DNA of 32,000 nt from Candidatus Saccharimonadota bacterium (GCA_016432445.1 CP066689.1:60001-92000); one strand, 5' to 3'. Positions 3,772 to 28,531 are shown, numbered from the stretch's first letter. Notes: a model not told the origin generated them from the letters alone. Program-made: numbers and translations.

Positions 3772-5526
3772 TTATTCTATCAAACTTTTTTCCTCCTCAG
3801 AAGCAATGACTTTAAATCCAACGTGAGACTGACCGGCAAAAAATAATCCTTCTCCAACCCCAGCCGATAACAAGAAATGCTTTTCTCCGCCTGTCAGGTA
3901 AAATGTTTCGGTGATCTTATCAACCGCCGCAGTTGACTGCTTTAGAATAATCTGCAAACTGGAATTAGTGATAATAGCTTTTCCTTCCTGCGTTGACAGA
4001 AAATCTTCAACGTCTTGAGTAATTGTAGTTAACCCCAGCAAATATTTGCGGGCGCGCTTGGCAAAATTAAAAAGATAATTGCCTGAGTCTTTATGTTTGA
4101 TTAAATACCACGCCTCATCAACAATTAAAACTCTTTTTTTCTTTTCACGCCTTACCTTATTCCAGATGTAATCTAAAACAACGTACATGGCCACCGGCCT
4201 TAAGTTTTCCTCCAAATCCCTAATACCAAAAACCGTAAATGGATTTTTAATATCAAAGTTTGATTGCTGATTAAAAATGCCTGAAGCTGAACCTTTAACG
4301 AATTTCTCCAGCCGGTCGCCCAGTTCTTTTGATTCTGGTGTTTCCATCCCCAATAATACTTTATAAAGATCCTCTAGAAGCGGCGGCTGCGTTTTAAAAG
4401 TCTCAGGATCCTGAGTGATGCCTTTTTGGCGGTAGGTCAAGACCAATGCCCGATCAAGAAGAGCATCCTGGGCCGGGACCAAATCACCCATAATTACCCT
4501 CATTAATGAATGCAGATTTAAGATTTTATTCTGCAGTTCATCAGGCTCAGGATCAGCGGTTGCTAAATCAAAAGGATTAATTTTATACTGAGATGCCCCT
4601 GAAAATTCTACAAACTCTCCACCCATTGAACCTGTTAATTTTTTATACTCATTCTCAGGGTCAATGATCATCACATCAGTACCCATCATCAGCAGTCTTG
4701 ACGACTCAAGTTTGACTAAAAAGCTTTTCCCTCCTCCTGATTTTCCTAAAATAACTGAGTTGGCATTCTCAAGAGTAAACCGGTCAAAGATAATAAGTGA
4801 TCCGTCATGCTGATTTAATCCATACATAATTCCTTCGTTTTTTGTAAGAGATGCCGTTGAAAAAGGAAAAGTCGTAGCTAAAGATGTTGTGTCCATATTG
4901 CGCCACACTGAAAGTTTGTCATAAAACATAGGTAAGGTTGATTTAAATCCTTCTTCCATCTGCAAAGTTGCTTGTTTAGCAATAATAAGAAGTGAGGCTA
5001 AACTTGAGTCAATCTGTTTGCTTAACTGATTTAACTCATCAAGACTATCAGCCGGAATTGTGATATAAAGTCCAAACTGAAAAAATCTTTCCGCTCCTTT
5101 GGCAAGTTCAGCCTGCAAGGCTAAAGCATCATCAAGGGCTACCTGTACTGTCGGGTCAACTACCTTCCCCGCCTTCATATCAGTTTCAATAGTCGCTTCC
5201 ATCTCGGCAATCTTGCGTTTCAAATCTTCAAGTACTGTTTTCGATTCGGTTGGATAAATATACATTGAGATATAAAGAGGATGATCAAAAGTAATAAGAG
5301 AATAAAGCCAGTTGGCTGAAACATAACGGGGGTAGCCTACGACATACAAAGTTTTGTAATATTTATCATCAATTTTAAGGTAGTTGAAATCAACTTCAAT
5401 AAAAGAAGGCGCAATAATATCTTTGATACTGACTGATCCTTTAGCCACTACCTCGGCCACGCTTTGAGATCCGCCCGCAACAGCCGAACCATTTGATTTT
5501 GTTTTTGGTTTAAATAAACCTAGCAT
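3772..5526 (-). CDS. VirB4/TrbE-like type IV secretion ATPase
   Basis: Walker A GKSGGGKSF and Walker B VLIVDEAW. N-terminal region is typical of the VirB4 family (YYKTLYVVGYPRYVSANWL). The track start at 5553 is a TTG inside the repeat element; the ATG at 5526 (MLGLFKPK) is preferred. Confidence 0.8.
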   Translation of the reverse strand: MLGLFKPKTKSNGSAVAGGSQSVAEVVAKGSVSIKDIIAPSFIEVDFNYLKIDDKYYKTLYVVGYPRYVSANWLYSLITFDHPLYISMYIYPTESKTVLEDLKRKIAEMEATIETDMKAGKVVDPTVQVALDDALALQAELAKGAERFFQFGLYITIPADSLDELNQLSKQIDSSLASLLIIAKQATLQMEEGFKSTLPMFYDKLSVWRNMDTTSLATTFPFSTASLTKNEGIMYGLNQHDGSLIIFDRFTLENANSVILGKSGGGKSFLVKLESSRLLMMGTDVMIIDPENEYKKLTGSMGGEFVEFSGASQYKINPFDLATADPEPDELQNKILNLHSLMRVIMGDLVPAQDALLDRALVLTYRQKGITQDPETFKTQPPLLEDLYKVLLGMETPESKELGDRLEKFVKGSASGIFNQQSNFDIKNPFTVFGIRDLEENLRPVAMYVVLDYIWNKVRREKKKRVLIVDEAWYLIKHKDSGNYLFNFAKRARKYLLGLTTITQDVEDFLSTQEGKAIITNSSLQIILKQSTAAVDKITETFYLTGGEKHFLLSAGVGEGLFFAGQSHVGFKVIASEEEKSLIE

Positions 5527-5530
5527 AATT

Positions 5531-5654
5531 AAATTTAAAAATCCAAATGTCAAAGCTTAAATGTCAAACCTGCCTGCCGGCAGGCAGGTCAAATCCAAAA
5601 TCTTAAATCCTAGAAAATGTTTGACATTTGAAATTTGGATTTTGACATTTAGAA
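5531..5654. repeat. heptamer-repeat hairpin element with central 22-nt GC palindrome
   Basis: AAATCCA/AAATGTC words, then acctgcctgccggcaggcaggt (5568-5589), then inverted TTTGACA/TTTGGAT words. Its last 22 nt (5633-5654) are identical to 13899-13920. Confidence 0.8.
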
Positions 5655-5656
5655 CT

Positions 5657-6313
5657 TTAACCATTAGTTAATATTGTATCGGTATAACTCTCAACCGGTG
5701 CTAACTGTTTCCCAGTTGCAGAGATATTGTAAAGATTATAAAAAAGGTCAGTAAGTTCTTGTTTCTGCAATACTGTCGCTCTTAAACCAACCTTAGCCAA
5801 AAGCCTTAAAAGGTGATCACGTTTTGGATAAAGTGATGTTTTAGCACGACTAATCACATACTCTTTATTTAATCCTTTGGTATTAACTCCTGATACTCCC
5901 ATCTCCAAAGGCGAGAAAGGAACTGCAAAAAAAAATCTTTTTTCTAAAACCGTGTTTTTTTTAACTACATTTTTAATAAATTCCTGATAGCTTAATAGTC
6001 TTTGTTTCATAAGATCATTATGCGAAGTATTAATCTTTCCCTGCAGATAATCTATGTAAGATGAAACATCCATGCGCTTGGAAAGAATCAATATCTCAAC
6101 CGGAAATGAGAGAGAATTTAAAAGACTGGCATAAGAATAAATCATTGAAGCCTGCTCTTCTTGAGACAAGAGCCAGAAGTTTACTGCCCCAACCTCAATA
6201 ACAATTACTGCTGAAGAATCTTTCAAAAGCAAAATATCATCTTTAATCTCTTCTATCTCAATAAAATACTGTGTCGTTGACTTTACCGGTGATGTGGGCT
6301 TTTGTACTGGCAT
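5657..6313 (-). CDS. hypothetical protein, T4SS-cluster associated
   Basis: 218-aa ORF between the PrgI-like and VirB4-like genes on the same strand. No catalytic motif recognised. Confidence 0.5.
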   Translation of the reverse strand: MPVQKPTSPVKSTTQYFIEIEEIKDDILLLKDSSAVIVIEVGAVNFWLLSQEEQASMIYSYASLLNSLSFPVEILILSKRMDVSSYIDYLQGKINTSHNDLMKQRLLSYQEFIKNVVKKNTVLEKRFFFAVPFSPLEMGVSGVNTKGLNKEYVISRAKTSLYPKRDHLLRLLAKVGLRATVLQKQELTDLFYNLYNISATGKQLAPVESYTDTILTNG

Positions 6314-6319
6314 CTTTTT

Positions 6320-6386
6320 ATGATTTATGATTCACGATTTAAGATTCATGAATATTCTTGAATCCTGAATCATGAATCTTGAATCA
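6320..6386. repeat. heptamer-repeat hairpin element (GATTCA / TGAATC word family)
   Basis: Reads tgattta|tgattca|cgattta|agattca|tgaatat|tcttgaa|tcctgaa|tcatgaa|tcttgaa|tca, a perfect 7-nt phase. The two halves are reverse-complementary. Confidence 0.85.
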
Positions 6387-6394
6387 ATTTTGTT

Positions 6395-7297
6395 TTATAA
6401 CATTTCTTTCGAATAAAACTCAAAAGGATTGGGATTGTTTTCCTCAACCTTCAATTTCATTGTATCAAAAAAGTAACCGCCTTTTGGATCTTTTAGTTCA
6501 AATAAATACTCGCCTTCAGGCAGATTGTTATAGGTTGCAAAAACTCCGTGAGGATTAGTTTTTAATAATCTTAAAGTCTCGTTACTACCACCTTTTACAT
6601 AAATTAAAATACCGGGAAGCGGAATCTTTTTATTGTTTTTAACCAAACCAATAAAGAATGGCTGTTTGGGTTGACTCGAAGATACAGCCGGTACTGAAAG
6701 CGGCGTAGCATTAATAGTAGAGGCCGCCTGAGCCACAACAGGATTATCAGTTCTGGGTTGTGAGTTGTGAGTTGTGGGTTGTGAATTTTGTGTTGACTCA
6801 GAACCCACAACCCTTGACCCAGAACTATTTTGTAATTGATTCGTCGCTGTCTGCAATAATGTCTGCACTTGCTGTTTGTTATCGTTTGATGCTTGCTGGG
6901 GAGTTGAGCTAACAAGATATGCTGCTAGTTTTTCTTTGGACTCAATATGCGATATTATTTTATGAGGGTCTGAAACAAAATATAGATTTTGTAGAAAATA
7001 AAGAGGCTGATTATGTTTGTGATAAACATATTGAGTTGGAGATGTAAGTCTTTTTATAAGATTTTTAATCCAAACATCAAGAGGCCGATCATTTATCGGC
7101 ACCAAAGCTAAAGCTGCACCAAACAGTACAAAAATTACTCCTAAAATGATATTTAAATAAGGTATCGGAAAAATCATCCAGATAATAAAACCCACAGGAC
7201 CAAATACCAAAAAATACAAAAACTGCTTTAAGGTCATAAACCCAATTAGCTTAAACTCAAATGTAGTTATCTGACGAGGAACTGGATGCTGCTCCAT
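6395..7297 (-). CDS. PrgI-family-like membrane protein with C-terminal carboxypeptidase-regulatory-like beta domain
   Basis: The N-terminus MEQHPVPRQITTFEFKLIGFMTLKQF plus two TM helices matches my memory of PrgI-family proteins encoded next to VirB4. The C-terminus (GILIYVKGGSNETLRLLKTNPHGVFATYNNLPEGEYLFEL) looks like a CarboxypepD_reg fold. The start is moved to the ATG at 7297. Confidence 0.6.
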   Translation of the reverse strand: MEQHPVPRQITTFEFKLIGFMTLKQFLYFLVFGPVGFIIWMIFPIPYLNIILGVIFVLFGAALALVPINDRPLDVWIKNLIKRLTSPTQYVYHKHNQPLYFLQNLYFVSDPHKIISHIESKEKLAAYLVSSTPQQASNDNKQQVQTLLQTATNQLQNSSGSRVVGSESTQNSQPTTHNSQPRTDNPVVAQAASTINATPLSVPAVSSSQPKQPFFIGLVKNNKKIPLPGILIYVKGGSNETLRLLKTNPHGVFATYNNLPEGEYLFELKDPKGGYFFDTMKLKVEENNPNPFEFYSKEML

Positions 7298-18109: not shown

Positions 18110-18131
18110 ACCTGCCTGCCGGCAGGCAGGT
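18110..18131. terminator. 22-nt perfect GC palindrome, candidate bidirectional terminator hairpin
   Basis: acctgcctgccggcaggcaggt lies between convergent gene ends (17787..18080 plus strand, 18157..19149 minus strand). There is no clear U-tract. Confidence 0.4.
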
Positions 18132-20615: not shown

Positions 20616-21062
20616 ATGTATTGTATTTTTTGCGGGCACACCAGCACTGATGTTATAGAAACCAGGCTTTCAGAAGACGGAAGCGCCATAAGAAGAAGGC
20701 GGAACTGTCCTAAATGCCAAAGGCGGTTTACCACCTATGAAAGAATCGAAGAGCTTCCGATACTGGTTATTAAGCGCGACAATACTAGAGAAAGATTTGA
20801 AAGAGAAAAGCTGAGAAGAGGTCTTTTAAAGGCGGCTGAAAAAACTACAGTCTCAGCAGATCATATTGAGAAGATATCCTCAGAGATTGAATCCGAGCTA
20901 AAACAGCAAAGTTCGACCGAGGTTGAGAGTAATCTTATCGGCAACCTGGTTGCCAAAAAGCTTAAAAAACTGGATAAAGTCGCTTATATCCGTTTCGCTT
21001 CGGTTTTTAAAAGGTTTGTCGATGTTGAGGAGTTTGAAAAAGAACTGAAAAAATTATTATAA
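20616..21062 (+). CDS. nrdR: transcriptional repressor NrdR
   Basis: The Zn ribbon MYCIFCGH...CPKCQRRFTTYE followed by an ATP-cone region (ILVIKRDNTRERFEREKL) matches NrdR. Confidence 0.9.
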   Translation: MYCIFCGHTSTDVIETRLSEDGSAIRRRRNCPKCQRRFTTYERIEELPILVIKRDNTRERFEREKLRRGLLKAAEKTTVSADHIEKISSEIESELKQQSSTEVESNLIGNLVAKKLKKLDKVAYIRFASVFKRFVDVEEFEKELKKLL

Positions 21063-21133: not shown

Positions 21134-23497
21134 ATGAAGCTTCAAGGAGTATCAGAAAAGGTTTTTTTAGATCGCTACGCTTTAAAAGATAGCTTAGGAA
21201 ATCCTATTGAAAAAAGTCCTGAAGAAACCTGGCACCGCGTAGCCAAAGCTGTAGCTAAATTAGAAAAAAAAGAGGTTCAGAAAAAATGGGAAAAAGACTT
21301 TTACAAAGCCATGCAGGACTTCAAATATATCCCCGGAGGAAGAATCTTAGCCGGCGCCGGCACTGGTTATTCTGTAACTTATTACAACTGCTTTGTTATC
21401 CCTAGTCCTAAAGATGCCAGAGGCGGCATTCTTGATACTTTAAAACAGATGGTTGAGGTTATGGCCCATGGCGGCGGAGTAGGCATTAATATCTCATCTT
21501 TAAGACCCCGAGGAGCTAGGGTTAAAAAAGTTAATGGTTTCTCTTCAGGTCCTTTAAACTGGGCTGAGCTTTTTTCTCTAGCTACCAAAGACATTATTCA
21601 ACAAGGAGGGACAAGACGGGGAGCTTTGATGCTTATGTTATGGGACTGGCACCCTGATATTGAGGAGTTTATAACTGTCAAGCAAGATTTATCAAGAATT
21701 AACGGCGCCAATCTTTCCCTTTGTATCTCAGATAAATTTATGGAGGCAGTAGAGAAAGATGCGGACTGGCCTTTAGTCTTTCCTGATATTGATGACCCTG
21801 AGTATGATATGAAATGGGAAGGCGATCTTGAGGTTTGGAAAAGTTTAGGGAAAAAAGTAATTGTTCAAAAAGTAGTTAAAGCCAGAAAAATTTGGGATCT
21901 TATTGCAGAGGGAGCTTGGAAATCAGCTGAACCTGGCGTAGTTTTTATGGAAAGATATAACAAAATGTATAACAACTATTATTGGAATCGCATCAACTGC
22001 GTTAATCCTTGCGGTGAAGAGGGTTTGGCGCCTTGGGGCGTATGTAATTTGGGATCTATCAACCTTTCAGCTTTAGTCAAAGGCAATAGTGTTGATAAAA
22101 AAGGAAAGTTTGATTTTGCTACTTTAAAGAAAATAATCCGGGCAGCTGTCCGTCTTCAAGATAATGTTATCGATATGGATCCTTATATATTTGAGGGGAT
22201 GAGAGAAACCCAACTTGAGGGAGAAAGAAGAATCGGATTAGGAACAATGGGTCTTGGAGATACCTTAATCAAACTTCACTTACGATATGGTTCAGATGAA
22301 TCACTGAAATTTATTGAAAAGGTTTACAAATTAATAAGAGATGAAGCTTATAAAGCTTCATCTGAAATTTCCAAAGAAAAAGGACCTTTTAAAAAATTTG
22401 ATAAAGAGCTTTATCTTAAAGGCAAATTTGTCAGCCAGCTTCCTTCAGATGCTAAAACCGATATCGGCAAATATGGCATCAGAAACTCGCTGCTTTTAAC
22501 CCAAGCCCCAACCGGATCAACATCACTTATGGCCAGCACAACCTCAGGGATTGAACCTGTCTTTGAGTTTGAGTTTATACGAAGAGACCGCTTGGGCGAA
22601 CATGTATTAAGACATCATTTATATGATCAATGGTATAAGAAACATGAGGAAGAAATTAAGCAGGGAAAAGTGAAAAAACCTGATTGGTTCGTCTCAGCCA
22701 ATGAACTTTCACCTGAAGATCATGTAAAAGTACAAGCTGTTATTCAAAAATATGTTGATGCCTCTATCTCAAAAACAGTTAATGCCCCCAAAAACCACAC
22801 AGTTGAGGATGTTAAAAAGCTTTATAACTTAGCCTACAAACTTGGTCTTAAAGGTATCGCTTATATGCGTGAAGGATCAAGACCAGGGGTGCTTGAGCGG
22901 AAAGAAGAGAAAAAAGAAGAACAGCCAAAACAACCTGAGATTGCTGTTAAGCCACGCCCGATGGTTGTTCAAGGATCAACGTATAAAATTAATACGCCAG
23001 TTGGCACTGCCTTTATTACGGTTAATACTAACGGCAGCAATGAACCATTGGAAGTATTTATTAATGTTGGGAAGGCAGGAACAGATGTTTACGCTATGGC
23101 TACAGCTTTAGGAAGGGTTATCTCAGTAGCTTTGCGTTTCTCCTCTCATCTATCTCCTAGGGAAAGAGTTAAAGAAATCATTGATCAGCTGGAAGGGATA
23201 GGCGGCGCCAGAACTTTAGGCTTTGGAAAGGAAAAAATCCGCAGTCTGCCTGACGCTGTGGCTAAAGTGCTTTCAATGCATTTTAAATTTAACGGCTACG
23301 CTGAAAAACACGCGGCTGACCAGATGAAACAAGGTGCAAAGCTAGTTAGTGAAGAGATACAACCGCCTTTAATCCAGGCACAGGAACCAGCCATAAGAAC
23401 CGGCCTTTTTGATCTTTGCCCCGGCTGTGGAGAAGCAACTTTAGCTCATGAGGAAGGCTGCGCTAAATGTTATAGTTGTGGTTATTCCGCGTGCTGA
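21134..23497 (+). CDS. nrdJ: adenosylcobalamin-dependent (class II) ribonucleotide reductase
   Basis: 787 aa with YNCFV, the active-site region NPCGEE.L.PWG.CNLGSINL, TQAPTGSTS, and the C-terminal Cys-rich tail CPGCGEATLAHEEGCAKCYSCGYSAC typical of class II RNRs. Confidence 0.9.
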   Translation: MKLQGVSEKVFLDRYALKDSLGNPIEKSPEETWHRVAKAVAKLEKKEVQKKWEKDFYKAMQDFKYIPGGRILAGAGTGYSVTYYNCFVIPSPKDARGGILDTLKQMVEVMAHGGGVGINISSLRPRGARVKKVNGFSSGPLNWAELFSLATKDIIQQGGTRRGALMLMLWDWHPDIEEFITVKQDLSRINGANLSLCISDKFMEAVEKDADWPLVFPDIDDPEYDMKWEGDLEVWKSLGKKVIVQKVVKARKIWDLIAEGAWKSAEPGVVFMERYNKMYNNYYWNRINCVNPCGEEGLAPWGVCNLGSINLSALVKGNSVDKKGKFDFATLKKIIRAAVRLQDNVIDMDPYIFEGMRETQLEGERRIGLGTMGLGDTLIKLHLRYGSDESLKFIEKVYKLIRDEAYKASSEISKEKGPFKKFDKELYLKGKFVSQLPSDAKTDIGKYGIRNSLLLTQAPTGSTSLMASTTSGIEPVFEFEFIRRDRLGEHVLRHHLYDQWYKKHEEEIKQGKVKKPDWFVSANELSPEDHVKVQAVIQKYVDASISKTVNAPKNHTVEDVKKLYNLAYKLGLKGIAYMREGSRPGVLERKEEKKEEQPKQPEIAVKPRPMVVQGSTYKINTPVGTAFITVNTNGSNEPLEVFINVGKAGTDVYAMATALGRVISVALRFSSHLSPRERVKEIIDQLEGIGGARTLGFGKEKIRSLPDAVAKVLSMHFKFNGYAEKHAADQMKQGAKLVSEEIQPPLIQAQEPAIRTGLFDLCPGCGEATLAHEEGCAKCYSCGYSAC

Positions 23498-23500
23498 TAT

Positions 23501-24034
23501 ATGACAATTTATACCAAAACAGGGGATAAAGGTAAGACTTCTCTTTTTGGAGGTAAGCGGGTTTTAAAATGCGATTGCAACATTGAAGCTTATGGATCTA
23601 TCGATGAACTTTCAAGTATTATAGGGCTCATTATTTCTAAAGAAAAAAATAAAGATAAAAAACAGCTGCTTACCGATGTACAGAAAGATTTTTATCAAAT
23701 CATGTCGTCAATTTCAGGCGCAAATGTTAATTTAGCCTCGCTTCTTAAGAAGATAAACTTTTTTGAACAAGAAATTAAAAATATAGAATTAAGACTGCCT
23801 GTTCTAAATCGTTTTATTTTGCCTGGTGGCACTGAAATAGCGGCATTACTTCATATTTCCCGAACTGTTTGCCGAAGAGCCGAAAGAGATGTCGCTCGCT
23901 ATTTTGAAACAGAAAAAAAAGATCACAAAATACAAAATTATAAGTCATTTATTCTTCCTTACTTAAATCGGCTTTCTGATCTTTTATTTATAATGGCAAG
24001 AGAAGCTAACAAAAATAATGAAGTAACAGTTTAA
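23501..24034 (+). CDS. PduO-type ATP:cob(I)alamin adenosyltransferase
   Basis: N-terminus IYTKTGDKGKTSLFGGKRV, then GSIDELSS..G, F.LPGG......LH..RTVCRRAER and YLNRLSDLLF. Confidence 0.85.
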   Translation: MTIYTKTGDKGKTSLFGGKRVLKCDCNIEAYGSIDELSSIIGLIISKEKNKDKKQLLTDVQKDFYQIMSSISGANVNLASLLKKINFFEQEIKNIELRLPVLNRFILPGGTEIAALLHISRTVCRRAERDVARYFETEKKDHKIQNYKSFILPYLNRLSDLLFIMAREANKNNEVTV

Positions 24035-24042
24035 ACTACGAA

Positions 24043-24062
24043 CCTGCCTGCCGGCAGGCAGG
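24043..24062. terminator. 20-nt perfect GC palindrome flanked by CTACGAA heptamers, candidate terminator of the nrdJ-pduO unit
   Basis: cctgcctgccggcaggcagg lies 9 nt after the adenosyltransferase stop. Flanking words are ctacgaa | ccacgaa|ctaccaa|ctacgaa. Confidence 0.45.
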
Positions 24063-24087: not shown

Positions 24088-24116
24088 TTGATTTTAATTA
24101 TCTTTAATAGTATGCT
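24088..24116 (+). promoter_or_regulatory. candidate promoter of the riboswitch-led operon
   Basis: TTGATT, a 17-nt spacer, TATGCT, about 20 nt upstream of riboswitch stem P1. Confidence 0.45.
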
Positions 24117-24138
24117 AAGAAAGCATTTTTAAAAATTA

Positions 24139-24308
24139 GGCTTGGTTTAACCACAATAAGGTTAATTGGGAATACGGTGTGAATCCGTAACTGTGCCGCA
24201 GCGGTAAAAGTTAGTCGCGAGTCGTTAGTCATGAGTCATTAAAAATGACTCTCAAGACTAAAGACTCAAGTCTCAAGACTAAACTTGAGTCCGAAGACCG
24301 ACCAAGCT
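24139..24308 (+). promoter_or_regulatory. cobalamin (B12) riboswitch
   Basis: The core GGUUAAUUGGGAAUACGGUGUGAAUCCGUAACUGUGCCGCAGCGGUAAAAG parallels E. coli btuB GUUAAUAGGGAAUCCAGUGCGAAUCUGGAGCUGACGCGCAGCGGUAAGG. The 3' B12-box GAGUCCGAAGACCGACC fits rAGYCMGgAgaCCkGCc. The P1 halves are ggcttggt / accaagc. Confidence 0.85.
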
Positions 24309-24332
24309 CTCGACCCCGAGCAGGGATTATTT

Positions 24333-25640
24333 ATGTTATCGGCCGAAATCTGTAAGCCTTCATCATCTTTTCTTCCTAGCAGAAATGCTACAGAAAGAAC
24401 AAATACAATCGACGTTCCATTAAAAGAAGAGTCGATTTTTAATTATTACTCAATCACCAACGAAGCCAAATTCCTCAAAGAAAACCCTCAATTGCCTCAC
24501 GAGCAAAAAGAATATTATCTTAAAGAAAACGTTTTAAGATTCTTGGGGGAGTTTGCCGGAAAAGTTCCTTACACTAAAATAACCTACATTCTAAGAGATG
24601 ATGGATTATATTACGGAGATCTAAAAGCCATGGACAATTATCGCCAGACTGCTATAATGCCTGAAGCCACCGATCGGGAAAAAGCCGAAGGGGAAGGATT
24701 TGAAAAAGTTGAGGAAGGATTACTTCAACCGGCAAACACCGCTTATTGGATTTCTCCTCCTAAGATTGCCAATTATGGATTTGTTTTCTACTTCACTAAA
24801 GAACTCCAATACGATAAAAAATTAAAAGGTTACAAGGTTACTGAATATATTTTAAGATATCCTGAAAAATTGGAAGATGTTTCAAAAAGTAACCAAATTG
24901 CTTATGGAATAGAAAGTAATGGAAATAACAAACATTACCGGAAAAACGCCAATGATTTTATCAGAGACCCTTTTTTTGATTTATCCAATCCAAATTCAAA
25001 TCTTAAAAAGATATTAAATCTTGTTGATGTTGATGATGAAAAGATATTTCAATCCCAACAGTTTGAAAAACAGGTTGAAGAAAAACTTTCAGGATTAATT
25101 GATCAATACACCAAAACTATTATGATACTATCAAAATATGAACCTTATGAACCAGAATATAATCAAATGTGTAACCACGCTGAAAGTTTACTAACTACTA
25201 TTTACAACAGTGCACGCGTCATTAAGCATATTGTTGAAGAACCTGAAAATCACAATACTGAGAGTTCTGTTTTTGAAAGAGCCAGCAATAAAGAACTTAT
25301 GGCTTACTTTTCACAAAAAAAAGCCACCGTAACTGGAGGAGGCAGTTGTCCTGTTACAAACAAAAGAAATCAACCTGCCTATTTATCATCTTTTAACGTT
25401 TATGCCCTAATGAATACCGGAAATCCCATTGAAAGTTTTATTCATGATCTTGATGAACTTTTTTCAGATAATAAATTTTTAGAATCTGATAGCGAAAACG
25501 AACACTATGAAGATTATGAATGTCCTCATTGCCACGAAACATTGTCAGGTGAAAAGAAAAATGATCCAAGTTCCTGGAGAAAAACATGCGACCACTGTGG
25601 TGAAGATGTCAGATGTAATAAAGAAACGTTAGCTGCCTAA
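24333..25640 (+). CDS. hypothetical protein with C-terminal CxxC...CxxC zinc ribbon, riboswitch-controlled
   Basis: Long ORF with no TM segment or signal peptide. The C-terminus is YECPHCHETLSGEKKNDPSSWRKTCDHCGEDVRC. The track start (TTG 24285) lies inside the riboswitch, so the in-frame ATG at 24333 is preferred. No family recognised. Confidence 0.6.
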   Translation: MLSAEICKPSSSFLPSRNATERTNTIDVPLKEESIFNYYSITNEAKFLKENPQLPHEQKEYYLKENVLRFLGEFAGKVPYTKITYILRDDGLYYGDLKAMDNYRQTAIMPEATDREKAEGEGFEKVEEGLLQPANTAYWISPPKIANYGFVFYFTKELQYDKKLKGYKVTEYILRYPEKLEDVSKSNQIAYGIESNGNNKHYRKNANDFIRDPFFDLSNPNSNLKKILNLVDVDDEKIFQSQQFEKQVEEKLSGLIDQYTKTIMILSKYEPYEPEYNQMCNHAESLLTTIYNSARVIKHIVEEPENHNTESSVFERASNKELMAYFSQKKATVTGGGSCPVTNKRNQPAYLSSFNVYALMNTGNPIESFIHDLDELFSDNKFLESDSENEHYEDYECPHCHETLSGEKKNDPSSWRKTCDHCGEDVRCNKETLAA

Positions 25641-25661
25641 AAAATCCTTTATAATGAATTT

Positions 25662-26072
25662 ATGCCGACAATAAATTACACTCCTATTGACGATATTATT
25701 GCTAACGGTGGTTATTCTTCAAAAGAAAAAGAACCGGCCATGGTTAAAAGCGAACCTTTAGAGATACATGAAATAGTTGAGCACAAAGAAGTTGATGAGG
25801 AGGTTAAACCGCATATTGAAGTTAAACAAGAAAATGTAAAACTGCCTGAAGATTTAACCCAAGCCGGAGTTGAAGCCGTCGAGACAACCCAGTTTCCCAA
25901 TCTTCAAAAAATTAAAACCCCGCTTTCTGACGAAAAAATTTTAGTAGGCCTTCATCAACCAATCACCTCTTCATTTAGGTGGCTTGCCACACTAGCTATG
26001 CATATATTAAAACAAGCTCATTTAGGCTTAAAGGTTGTTCATGGAAAAGTGATGAGAGTTCAGAGAAAATAA
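25662..26072 (+). CDS. hypothetical acidic protein with basic amphipathic C-terminus
   Basis: 136 aa, starting 21 nt after the previous gene on the same strand. The N-terminal two-thirds is acidic. The C-terminus is SSFRWLATLAMHILKQAHLGLKVVHGKVMRVQRK. Confidence 0.45.
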   Translation: MPTINYTPIDDIIANGGYSSKEKEPAMVKSEPLEIHEIVEHKEVDEEVKPHIEVKQENVKLPEDLTQAGVEAVETTQFPNLQKIKTPLSDEKILVGLHQPITSSFRWLATLAMHILKQAHLGLKVVHGKVMRVQRK

Positions 26073-26076
26073 TCTG

Positions 26077-26391
26077 TTACCCAGTAACTTTCTTAATCTC
26101 GCTTAAAAAACTTTCCTTACTCATAGCTCCAGTAAACTGAGAAACTACTTTTCCATTTTTGAAGATAAAAAAAGTCGGAATTGAAAAAATAGAGTACTGG
26201 GAAGCAAGATCGGCTTGAGCATCAACATCTACCTTAACAAATTTAACTTCGGTTAATCCTTTTGATATCTCTTCTAAGATTGGCGCTGTTAATTTGCAAG
26301 GACCACACCACTGCGCATAAAAATCAACAAAAACTATCCCTTTTTTATCTAATACCTCTTGTTGGAAGTCTTCTTTAGTTACTTTAATCAT
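26077..26391 (-). CDS. trxA: thioredoxin
   Basis: 104 aa with the WCGPC active site and the typical flanking sequence VDFYAQWCGPCK. Confidence 0.92.
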   Translation of the reverse strand: MIKVTKEDFQQEVLDKKGIVFVDFYAQWCGPCKLTAPILEEISKGLTEVKFVKVDVDAQADLASQYSIFSIPTFFIFKNGKVVSQFTGAMSKESFLSEIKKVTG

Positions 26392-27406: not shown

Positions 27407-28531
27407 TTATTCATCTTCTTCAGGGCTAATCAAGTTAAATACCGAAACTAAAGTCTTCCAGTCTAACGATTCAGATTCAATCTCCCTAACCATTTTTAAA
27501 AGTTGTACAAACTTATCTCTGTTTACATTCAGTTTGTCGGCTACTTCTTCTTGAGAAATATTACCGCTTATAGAGTATATCCAATAATAAAAAAATGCTT
27601 CTTTTTTTTCTAAAGTTAAATAATGCTTGTTAATTACGTCTATTGCTTGCTTAACTAATGATGAATATCCCTCTAATGTTTTAGGTAAGTTAAAAGTAAA
27701 ATTGGTTAAAGGATTGGTTAAAACGTCGTGAATAAATTGTTTTTCTGCTATAAAATTTGTTGTAAACCATTCGTCATCAACCTCCTGCCCAAATCTATTC
27801 AATGTTACATTTGTTTTAGTTCCGTCTGTAAATGCTTTCAAAAATGCTTCTATTTTTATCTTATTGGTAAAGTCATCGGGTAATTCTCGATGATTTTGAG
27901 TATAAATTTGTTGTAACTCTTCCCAAAAAAATAAATCATTTCCGATTATTCCTGATTCTAGAAGTTCTTTTGCAAATAAACAGGCTTGTTTTTGTTGAGG
28001 AGTTTGAGCATCAACACTTTTCCCATGTTTTACTAAAGCGGCTTTACGTTTCATCTCTGAAATTTCTTCATCGGTTAAAGAAGCTGAAGGAAGGTGCCTT
28101 AAAGCTGCCCTAATTTTACTTTTGCTAAGATCTGTATAAATGGCCACCATATCTCCCCTTGAAGCACCTCGAGCAACTAAAGGAGCAAGTTTCTTTTGCG
28201 TAGTAGCTCTTTTTTTATTCTCTTCGACCATTTTTTCAACTTTTCTTTTTCTTTGCTCTTCATATTCTGGATCATGCCAAAACCGATCACTTCTAACTTT
28301 ATTAGCGGCTGTAACTCTTTTCCTATAATCTTCATTATCCCACGCTTCTCTTGCAGCTTCAGTCGATACTTCTCTAAGGTGAGGATTTTCTGCATAAGCT
28401 CTCTTTACACCAATTGAGGTTAATTTACGAGCCTCGGGAGTTCTAGGATGATTTTTATAATACTTTTTTAAGGCTGTTGAAATATTTGCATTTCTGGAAG
28501 AAAATTGTCCTTGCTCTATTGATTTTACCAT
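27407..28531 (-). CDS. hypothetical DNA-binding protein (NUMOD3-like N-terminal repeats, C-terminal HTH-like segment)
   Basis: N-terminal repeats of the type ...PEARKLTSIGVKRAYAENPHLREVSTEAAREAWDNEDYRKRVTAANKVRSDRFWHDPEYEEQRKRKV. The C-terminus ISQEEVADKLNVNRDKFVQLL resembles an HTH. No nuclease domain seen. Confidence 0.4.
   Translation of the reverse strand: MVKSIEQGQFSSRNANISTALKKYYKNHPRTPEARKLTSIGVKRAYAENPHLREVSTEAAREAWDNEDYRKRVTAANKVRSDRFWHDPEYEEQRKRKVEKMVEENKKRATTQKKLAPLVARGASRGDMVAIYTDLSKSKIRAALRHLPSASLTDEEISEMKRKAALVKHGKSVDAQTPQQKQACLFAKELLESGIIGNDLFFWEELQQIYTQNHRELPDDFTNKIKIEAFLKAFTDGTKTNVTLNRFGQEVDDEWFTTNFIAEKQFIHDVLTNPLTNFTFNLPKTLEGYSSLVKQAIDVINKHYLTLEKKEAFFYYWIYSISGNISQEEVADKLNVNRDKFVQLLKMVREIESESLDWKTLVSVFNLISPEEDE

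Follow-up and report, generated by a model that had tools for sequence, protein, structure and literature searches.

The subject of this work is a 32,000-nucleotide stretch of DNA from a Candidatus Saccharimonadota bacterium (GCA_016432445.1, CP066689.1:60001-92000), here called the window, and within it a cobalamin (B12) riboswitch that stands directly in front of two uncharacterised open reading frames (ORFs), ORF-A and ORF-B. Positions given for features of this DNA are those of the whole window, which has a G+C content of 35%. A preliminary description, made from the sequence alone, had placed the riboswitch behind nrdR, nrdJ and a gene for a PduO-type adenosyltransferase, and Pfam matches bear out the identity of these upstream genes. 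The features of the locus are as follows.

20616 to 21062, plus strand: nrdR, transcriptional repressor of nrd genes (Pfam Zn_ribbon_NrdR E 1e-19, ATP-cone E 5e-20), with its position kept in related loci.
21134 to 23497, plus strand: nrdJ, adenosylcobalamin (AdoCbl)-dependent class II ribonucleotide reductase (RNR; Pfam Ribonuc_red_lgC E 3e-126, with lgN and TSCPD).
23501 to 24034, plus strand: PduO-type ATP:cob(I)alamin adenosyltransferase (Pfam Cob_adeno_trans E 5e-51).
24043 to 24062, no strand assigned: GC-rich 20-nt perfect palindrome CCTGCCTGCCGGCAGGCAGG, 9 nt past the pduO stop codon, arms 100% complementary.
24088 to 24116, plus strand: TTGATT-17-TATGCT, weakly promoter-like, 10 nt upstream of the aptamer, matching 8 of 12 consensus positions.
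24126 to 24320, plus strand: cobalamin riboswitch aptamer (RF00174, 64.2 bits) with a long P6-type extension.
24314 to 24326, plus strand: expression platform, a mini-hairpin CCC-CGAGCA-GGG with the Shine-Dalgarno (SD) sequence AGGGA, a motif common to related leaders.
24333 to 25640, plus strand: ORF-A, a soluble protein of 435 aa from an uncharacterised family (translation, homologues, AlphaFold2 (AF2) model).
25662 to 26072, plus strand: ORF-B, 136 aa (translation, homologues, AF2 model).
26077 to 26391, minus strand: thioredoxin gene (trx), convergent with ORF-B (Pfam Thioredoxin E 8e-32).

When the whole window was scanned by cmscan against Rfam 15, the sole match in its 32 kb was RF00174 at 24126-24320 on the plus strand. 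The match covers the full model (1-189 of 189) and scores 64.2 bits against a gathering score of 31.5 bits (E 7e-14), which answers strongly in favour of the riboswitch that the preliminary description had proposed. P1 is made up of ggcttggt (24139-24146) and accaagc (24301-24307); both halves, as well as the B12 box GAGTCCGAAGACCGACC (24287-24303), lie where that description had put them, and the P1 pairing is seen both in the cmscan alignment and in the minimum free energy (MFE) fold. The 231-nt leader has a more stable fold than 200 of 200 dinucleotide shuffles (z = -3.46), and P1 is closed in its MFE structure as well. The aptamer stops 12 nt short of the ORF-A start codon on the same strand; this ATG, at 24333, is the first past the aptamer, opens the 435-aa ORF as had been described, and is preceded by AGGGA at 24322-24326. 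The P6-type extension (24210-24283) consists of short internal repeats, with GTTAGTCNCGAGTC and TCTCAAGACTAAA each present twice, and this composition suggests that the extension grew through local duplication.

The SD sequence, 6 nt ahead of the ATG, forms the 3' arm of the mini-hairpin CCC-CGAGCA-GGG (24314-24325), which starts 6-7 nt past P1. The platform motif CCCCGNGCAGGGA, with the form CCCCG(N)GCAGGGA followed after 4-15 nt by ATG, was found in 31 distinct leaders. Among its variants, L013 and L014 have a compensatory stem, CCU...AGG, and the stem CCU...GGG of L019 contains a U-G wobble. In five loci (L007, L011, L027, L030 and L034) the SD hairpin is replaced by a variant platform, ACA-CGAGCCA-UGU, in which the loop is kept and the stem differs. 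What is sequestered by the variant is an AUG, out of frame, with which a 7-codon upstream ORF (uORF; MSYVRRP*) begins; this uORF overlaps the ORF-A start, an arrangement that hints at uORF-coupled control in these five loci, of a kind reportedly found in mycobacterial B12 switches.

No terminator-like element was found on the plus strand between the aptamer and the ORF-A start. The lack of a terminator and the 12-nt distance from the aptamer to the ATG place control at translation initiation or mRNA stability. In the env8HyCbl riboswitch a cobalamin-dependent kissing loop between L5 and L13 stabilises the P13 hairpin and masks the ribosome-binding site (RBS) (PMC5028336), and the P13/L13 RBS-hairpin mechanism is a feature of repressing translational B12 switches, including btuB (PMC5028336; PMC10327014). 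Judged by its platform, the switch described here is very probably translational and repressing, with ORF-A, and probably ORF-B, made at low intracellular cobalamin. An alternative hairpin, CUCG-ACCC-CGAG, that would free the SD was dropped from consideration as it is not conserved across loci.

The conservation of this arrangement was followed in four sets of loci, namely GTDB species representatives, metagenome contigs, loci anchored on ORF-B, and the most divergent family members. A cobalamin riboswitch at the curated threshold lies directly upstream of ORF-A and on the same strand at 43 of 46 loci, with a sub-threshold match at that place in the other three. The count overstates the number of independent observations, for every locus belongs to a single lineage and certain loci are close to being duplicates of one another. 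Among the GTDB species-representative loci, 16 of 18 have a gathering-level RF00174 or RF01689 match immediately upstream of the ORF-A homologue, and the two remaining loci have sub-threshold RF01689 matches at the same position (31.3 bits, E 6e-4, in L016; 22.4 bits in L002). The metagenome contigs yielded 24 loci; 20 were scanned and 19 of these gave a gathering-level match, the exception, L042, having a 28.3-bit match together with conserved platform sequence. Two loci anchored on ORF-B homologues whose upstream gene BLAST had missed (L019 and L023) encode proteins of 392 and 412 aa in the ORF-A slot, each with a riboswitch before it (2/2). These slot proteins are very distant relatives of ORF-A, as detected by hmmsearch with a profile of alignment A1, which comprises 40 ORF-A homologues, against a six-sequence database (1.8e-19 and 4.9e-6); the L023 protein also aligns with ORF-A in hhalign (probability 71%, E 3.7e-5). 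The five most divergent representatives (P0276, P0267, P0294, P0306 and P0258) show the same synteny, and all five carry an RF01482 or RF00174 riboswitch. Several hundred kb of flanking sequence contained no other cobalamin match, apart from a second riboswitch in L003.

As judged by tblastn with the window proteins, the gene order is nearly invariant, nrdR-nrdJ-pduO-(DUF4430-DUF6580)-riboswitch-ORF-A-ORF-B-<trx, and trx lies downstream of ORF-B in nearly all loci. The association of ORF-A homologues with the riboswitch and with nrdJ/pduO, which the preliminary description had put forward for checking, is essentially without exception, and the arrangement is conserved over a broad set of Microgenomates genomes of the Candidate Phyla Radiation (CPR). 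Many of the representative genomes with this typical Microgenomates locus (L001, L003, L005, L006, L008-L010, L012, L014, L015 and L018) are titled "uncultured Gammaproteobacteria bacterium", which looks like a mislabel at the level of the deposit and not a real taxonomic spread.

Which Rfam model gives the best score varies among the orthologous leaders (L001-L053), the three models concerned being RF00174, RF01689 ("AdoCbl-II") and RF01482 ("AdoCbl"); for about one third of the riboswitches it is RF01689. One member of the RF01689 class, env8HyCbl, prefers non-adenosylated cobalamin. The aptamer subtype has changed among the loci, the P6 extension is present or absent, and the position has been retained. 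The proteins have diverged to the detection limit and the aptamers are best described by three Rfam models, and the arrangement has all the same been actively maintained. Locus L003 contains two RF01689 riboswitches, one at 5018-5098 between nrdJ and pduO and the other at 5825-5899 before the ORF-A homologue.

Locus L021 is the sole locus truly without a riboswitch, none being found even at E <= 1, and it is also without ORF-A. At 5619-7001 ORF-A has been replaced by unrelated ORFs of 217 and 70 aa, and nrdR-nrdJ-pduO-DUF4430-DUF6580, ORF-B and trx have been kept. Since ORF-B has been kept there without ORF-A and the riboswitch, ORF-A and ORF-B, which are separated by 21 nt in the window and had been described as a two-gene operon, may not be one functional unit.

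The database entry for ORF-A is the hypothetical protein HYW86_00385 from a Candidatus Roizmanbacteria metagenome-assembled genome, and the organism is a member of that group (CPR/Microgenomates). A database clustered at 90% identity contains 66 homologues at 30-50% identity, all unnamed or "hypothetical", and wherever a source is named it is a member of Roizmanbacteria or Microgenomates. When 1.84 billion representatives were searched by profile, the result was 433 clusters (50% identity) at E <= 1e-3 and 258 at E <= 1e-10. ORF-A retains 28-50% identity across loci where NrdJ keeps 60-80%. The CxxC-x18-CxxC ribbon that had been noticed near the end of the ~435-aa ORF is present as C397xxC400-x18-C419xxC422, and there are two further conserved cysteines that had been missed, C339 in the motif GGGSCP and C428. 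The full six-cysteine set is found in 40 of 40 homologues, and comprises the GSC cysteine, the four ribbon cysteines and one cysteine that lies among the last 1-13 residues and is often the last or the last but one.

An AF2 model of ORF-A, built from the 40-sequence alignment, has a predicted local distance difference test score (pLDDT) of 85.7 and a predicted template modelling score of 0.77, with 290 residues at a pLDDT of 90 or above and a disordered N-terminus (aa 1-26). The model and the alignment define these elements.

aa ~78-178, nt 24564-24866: PAS-like alpha/beta domain, by the order of elements in the AF2 model.
aa 235-302: long helical hairpin in the AF2 model.
aa 335-340, nt 25335-25352: GGGSCP loop, poorly ordered.
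aa 397-422, nt 25521-25598: four-Cys ribbon, putatively zinc- or rubredoxin-like.
nt 25614-25616: C428.

The elements in PAS order are two strands (aa 81-94), helices (aa 99-131) and three strands (aa 136-177). Invariant or near-invariant residues are E73, R115, E116, E119, G122, S141-P142, K144, Y148, F152, E171, R175, Y176 and E178, and they cluster on the helices and strands of the PAS-like domain, a pattern suggestive of an active site or a pocket for a ligand. The only recurrent weak Foldseek matches are to LOV/PAS domains, with a probability of at most 0.25 and a target TM-score of at most 0.36.

Neither ORF-A alone nor the 40 family members gave a Pfam, NCBIfam or PHROG family match. 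A profile search against the PDB returned zinc-ribbon noise only, and for the CxxC-x18-CxxC ribbon itself, which is invariant in the family, the Pfam and PDB models of zinc-ribbon, rubredoxin and HypA type match below threshold only. With the ORF-A model as query, Foldseek searches of PDB and BFVD gave nothing at E <= 0.001, the best whole-chain TM-score being ~0.12, and Pfam scans of the long, N-terminally extended homologues found no fused domain. No DxHxxG, P-loop or CxxxCxxC motif is conserved among the homologues; DxHxxG is present in 2 of 40, at a non-conserved site. By Kyte-Doolittle hydropathy averaged over 19 residues the highest value reached is 0.54 in ORF-A and 1.07 in ORF-B, and neither has a transmembrane-like segment. 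The picture of two proteins lacking a membrane or secretion signal and recognised domains is upheld, and profile and structure matching (Pfam, NCBIfam, PHROG, PDB profiles, Foldseek) produced no match to any known family. In sequence and in predicted structure ORF-A shows no detectable likeness to any characterised protein.

Several identities for ORF-A were considered and rejected. It is not recognisable as an RNR, there being no ten-stranded barrel in the AF2 model and no Pfam, PDB or Foldseek RNR match; nor as a B12-binding-domain protein of the PF02310 type, given the lack of a Pfam match and of a conserved DxHxxG; nor as a CblC/MMACHC-type enzyme, for which neither a PDB sequence match nor a Foldseek match was obtained. 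The motifs or folds of a TK1-type kinase, a P-loop kinase, a radical-SAM enzyme and an SxxK acyl-enzyme are absent.

More than 117 homologues of ORF-B were found at 33-64% identity. Its conserved motifs in alignment A2 are NYTPID, KExEP, LPPDLKKxG and LPISDEKIxxGLHAPITSSxRWLATLAxYLLxQAHLxLKVVHGKVVRV, and it has no cysteine. The 136-aa ORF-B exists at 25662-26072 on the plus strand as had been described; it is acidic only in its N-terminal 85 residues (pI 4.7) and not overall (pI 6.2), the C-terminal 50 residues having a pI of 11.1. In the AF2 model the pLDDT exceeds 90 only at aa 90-136, which form two helices and a beta-hairpin within a conserved basic C-terminal domain (aa 86-136), and the acidic N-terminal region is of low confidence. 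ORF-B gave no match in Pfam, NCBIfam, PHROG, PDB sequence-profile or Foldseek (PDB) searches, and Pfam, NCBIfam and PHROG scans of divergent relatives were at noise level.

About half of the loci contain two extra genes between pduO and the riboswitch, encoding a DUF4430 protein of ~130 aa with an N-terminal hydrophobic segment (PF14478 E 1e-20) and a multi-pass membrane DUF6580 protein of ~180 aa (PF20221 E 4e-47). The pair is seen in L007, L008, L010, L011, L013, L014 and L017 (at about 4800-5770) and in many metagenome loci; a search of the window's 32 kb found neither gene. In the B12 auxotroph L. delbrueckii, the nrdJ-cbrS-cbrT-pduO cluster encodes CbrT, a proven B12-specific energy-coupling factor (ECF) S-component (PMC5997447), and by analogy the DUF4430 and DUF6580 proteins are a probable B12-uptake pair like CbrS-CbrT. 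If so, the uptake pair would be co-expressed with nrdJ and pduO, and ORF-A/B would be the only directly B12-responsive genes of the locus. The two genes lie upstream of the riboswitch and outside its control, which argues against ORF-A/B being the uptake system. A role for ORF-A/B as a B12 transporter of the BtuFCD, ECF-CbrT or BtuM kind was rejected, there being no transmembrane segment and no family match, and relatives having the separate DUF4430/DUF6580 genes. Other insertions between pduO and the riboswitch are genes for a purF-like glutamine amidotransferase and a purN-like formyltransferase (L009 1965-4425, L023 3960-5510, L053 5086-6639), and genes for a HAD hydrolase and a phosphoribosyltransferase are also among the occasional neighbouring insertions. 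The purF-like and purN-like insertions mark the neighbourhood as a general nucleotide-metabolism island.

The NrdJ protein of the window ends in a six-cysteine tail, CPGCG-x10-CAKCYSCGYSAC, encoded at 23417-23494. In the same region of 20 loci the tail FDxCPxCGEAxLAHEEGCxKCYxCGYSxC is almost invariant, and the spacing CPxCG-x10-CxxCxxC-x4-C fits the pattern of the Cys-rich C-terminal domain (CRD). The CRD of Stackebrandtia NrdJd binds zinc and shuttles electrons, and its native reductant is reported as unknown (PMC5704485). A trx gene two genes downstream is conserved. A single pairwise BLAST, run with the tail of an ORF-A homologue to see if the ORF-A tail had been copied from that of NrdJ, matched CPxCG only (E 0.013). 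The NrdJ tail being far more conserved, the resemblance is treated as an analogy.

Upstream of the riboswitch, the palindrome CCTGCCTGCCGGCAGGCAGG occurs as three exact copies in the window (5569-5588, 18111-18130 and 24043-24062), all intergenic, where none is expected by chance. The sequences flanking the three copies differ, and the copy at 24043 is bordered by AACTACGAAC direct repeats. The element looks like a genome-wide repetitive extragenic palindromic (REP)-like or terminator-like element, and the copy at 24043-24062 plausibly marks off the nrdJ-pduO unit from the riboswitch unit as a boundary of terminator-like or REP-like kind; as a terminator-like boundary it would make the riboswitch unit a separate transcript. 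The promoter TTGATT-17-TATGCT put forward for this unit is present as a sequence, but with only 8 of 12 consensus positions it is under the scan threshold and is not distinguishable from chance, the AT-rich region giving 15 promoter-like matches against 9.9 +/- 3.7 expected. TATAAT-like boxes directly upstream of the aptamers in several related leaders lend some positional support to a promoter at 24088-24116. Beyond trx the window encodes a Xer-type recombinase, RNase H, dnaN and dnaA. A 374-aa ORF at 27407-28531 on the minus strand, between the Xer-type recombinase and RNase H genes, gave no match in Pfam, NCBIfam or PHROG scans.

It is firmly supported that ORF-A, usually with ORF-B, is a lineage-specific member of a B12/NrdJ locus, with its synthesis very probably tied to intracellular cobalamin, and the standing of both proteins as candidates for a new B12-related function is intact. 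As to what that function is, we tentatively favour a reading that could well prove wrong, namely that ORF-A is a low-B12-induced, thiol-dependent, cytosolic corrinoid-handling factor that feeds PduO and NrdJ. Under such a scheme, low intracellular cobalamin would cause the riboswitch to permit translation of ORF-A and probably of ORF-B. ORF-A would capture incoming non-adenosylated corrinoid, its thiols would reduce or de-ligand the corrinoid, and the adjacent thioredoxin would recycle them. The product would be passed to PduO, which would make AdoCbl for NrdJ, and AdoCbl would feed back on the riboswitch. ORF-B might be an accessory or adaptor protein.

Corrinoid handling finds support in the six-cysteine signature present in all 40 homologues, in the adjacency of trx, and in a position between uptake and adenosylation on one side and a reductant on the other. 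The PAS-like strand-helix order of the model and the weak LOV/PAS matches may be counted in favour of a ligand-pocket domain. ORF-A is soluble and so would not be an importer, and the separate DUF4430/DUF6580 genes point the same way. The placement of pduO under its own riboswitch in L003 indicates that functions in AdoCbl supply are of the kind that this lineage puts under B12 control. Since PduO also re-adenosylates the cob(II)alamin released by NrdJ, it could be explained why pduO is usually constitutive and a first-pass factor is B12-repressed. Thiol-based cobalamin processing is the chemistry of human CblC/MMACHC, and BtuM, which is said to decyanate cobalamin through a cysteine, would be a precedent in bacteria.

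A number of points weigh against corrinoid handling. ORF-A has no apparent corrinoid-binding signature, and neither its sequence nor its model matches a B12-binding domain, CblC or the BtuM fold; a PAS pocket is small for a whole cobalamin. The adjacency of trx is explained equally well by NrdJ. That the uptake genes lie outside the riboswitch and ORF-A under it fits the logic of a B12-independent isozyme at least as well. If the RF01689-type switches are like env8HyCbl, they would repress ORF-A at a time when the substrate proposed for it is plentiful. Fast evolution, such as ORF-A shows, is unusual in a core enzyme. The switch is read as an OFF switch from its platform, and a search by complementarity for an L5-L13 partner across 19 leaders brought out no consistent pairing; L13 (CGNGCA) and L5 (UGUGAAU-like) are nearly invariant, and because of this no covariation could be counted. 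The 46 observations come from a single lineage with conserved synteny and are not independent, and one conserved synteny offers no alternative genomic context from which to triangulate function. A different context was sought in five distant family members, and all had the same synteny and gave no independent clue.

The main rival, which we consider unlikely, is a B12-independent backup or B12-sparing function, in which ORF-A/B replace or bypass the role of NrdJ, for example by supplying deoxyribonucleotides through salvage or a different chemistry. The location of the riboswitch directly after nrdR-nrdJ-pduO, governing a two-gene unit, speaks for such a function, as does the inclusion of ORF-A, and not of the probable uptake genes, under the switch. 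B12 riboswitches repress nrdAB/nrdDG or metE where a B12-dependent isozyme is also encoded, which is the parallel here; class I/III RNR operons with a B12 riboswitch ahead of them were reportedly described in nrdJ-bearing genomes by Vitreschak/Rodionov in 2003 and Borovok in 2006. The putative zinc ribbon and the terminal cysteine of the ORF-A tail resemble those of RNR catalytic subunits, trx is nearby, and the purF-like, purN-like, HAD hydrolase and phosphoribosyltransferase genes inserted in related loci belong to nucleotide metabolism. The proteins themselves speak otherwise: the AF2 model lacks the RNR ten-stranded barrel, Foldseek finds no RNR, kinase or nucleotide-enzyme fold, there is no P-loop or radical-SAM motif, ORF-B has no cysteine or obvious cofactor ligands, only one conserved cysteine of ORF-A lies outside the ribbon and tail, and the fast evolutionary rate speaks against a core enzyme. 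The most specific form of the idea, in which ORF-A/B would be a B12-independent replacement for NrdJ on a fold unrelated to known RNRs, induced at low cobalamin and with its Cys tail re-reduced by thioredoxin, is barely credible; a new RNR-like enzyme is improbable because of the fold and the absence of a radical-generating motif.

A second rival, distinctly unlikely in our estimation, is that ORF-A/B are non-enzymatic managers of the B12-starved state. Their binding partner would be NrdJ in its apo or damaged form, NrdR or the replication machinery, and as a holdase, a cofactor-loading adaptor or a checkpoint they would adjust replication or the demand for dNTPs while the sole RNR is without its cofactor. 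The fast divergence of ORF-A, with few invariant polar residues, would suit this role. ORF-B, largely disordered with a small conserved basic domain, has a composition typical of adaptors, and it persists without ORF-A in L021. In several genomes the locus also lies close to the origin, dnaA/dnaN being no more than a few kb away, but this proximity may be lineage synteny. Neither a DNA-binding domain nor a known protein-interaction domain is present, and the pocket-like residues E73, R115, E116, E119, S141, K144, E171, R175 and E178, together with the invariant cysteine, look catalytic or ligand-binding.

There is a slender chance that the switch is activating and that ORF-A, made only in the presence of B12, is an accessory of NrdJ, for example the missing electron shuttle between thioredoxin and NrdJ's Cys-rich tail. 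For CRD-type NrdJ the native reductant is reported to be unknown (PMC5704485), ORF-A has a redox-looking cysteine set and its gene lies between nrdJ and trx, and an activating corrinoid riboswitch exists in nature (PMC10327014). That single known example is transcriptional and follows a different logic, however, whereas the SD inside a P13-like hairpin is a repressing architecture, with no conserved alternative structure that would free it. Slimmer still is the chance that ORF-A/B are hitch-hikers with a function unrelated to B12 or deoxyribonucleotides, for although the loci all stem from a single CPR lineage in which gene order is conserved, which could be the frozen synteny of one clade, a dedicated riboswitch has been kept before ORF-A in spite of protein divergence to the detection limit and of changes in aptamer subtype (RF00174, RF01689, RF01482), and L021 has lost ORF-A and the riboswitch together.

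Few pointers to what an uncharacterised gene does are as reliable as a riboswitch, and B12 riboswitches led to the CbrT and BtuM transporters. The switch described here has stood before its protein pair for a long stretch of evolution. Full-text literature searches on cobalamin riboswitches of CPR, Patescibacteria and Roizmanbacteria and on DUF4430/DUF6580 found no prior description of this system. The organisms appear to depend on scavenged B12 for DNA-precursor synthesis, and the function of ORF-A/B bears on how the smallest bacteria process or economise on B12, on whether bacteria have cytosolic B12-trafficking proteins comparable to human CblC/CblD, and on the supply of electrons to, or a substitute for, the widespread CRD-type class II RNRs. 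If the corrinoid-handling reading is true, ORF-A would represent a new cytosolic system, confined to CPR bacteria, for the thiol-dependent processing or chaperoning of corrinoids. Both proteins are small and soluble, and the hypotheses are tractable in vitro.

Compared with known systems, the RNA is closest to env8HyCbl and E. coli btuB of clan CL00101, with which it shares a full-length aptamer, a B12 box, P1, a short J1/13 linker, a small RBS hairpin and the lack of a terminator. It differs in that the SD is in the 3' arm of a 3-bp stem and not clearly in the loop, and in that the ORF-A/B cargo is not for transport, biosynthesis or a recognised B12-independent isozyme. The riboswitch-controlled nrdAB/nrdDG operons of Streptomyces and other bacteria, which in actinobacteria stand next to nrdRJ, resemble the locus in having nrdR-nrdJ beside a riboswitch-controlled two-gene unit, a thioredoxin-type reductant nearby and the logic of synthesis when B12 is lacking; ORF-A/B, in contrast, have no RNR fold, radical cofactor motif or homology to NrdA/B/D/G. 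The nrdJ-cbrS-cbrT-pduO cluster of L. delbrueckii likewise combines nrdJ and PduO with a small membrane S-component-like protein, corresponding to DUF6580, and a small partner, corresponding to DUF4430, but is without ORF-A/ORF-B and without an internal riboswitch. Like the CRD of NrdJd, ORF-A has a Cys4 site, in its case a putative zinc site, and after it one more cysteine at the C-terminus or close to it, and it shares its locus with a CRD-bearing NrdJ, but the ORF-A tail is variable in spacing and sequence whereas the NrdJ tail is almost invariant. The likeness to CblC/MMACHC and BtuM is limited to the proposed chemistry, in which a conserved cysteine would act on the cobalt ligand before adenosylation; ORF-A has no sequence or fold similarity to either, and is soluble whereas BtuM is a membrane protein. 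The RNA is then an ordinary further member of clan CL00101 with an env8/btuB-like translational platform, and the locus as a whole appears, by sequence and model, to be a B12 regulon of known kind with an unprecedented cargo, the ORF-A family and a second small protein without counterpart.

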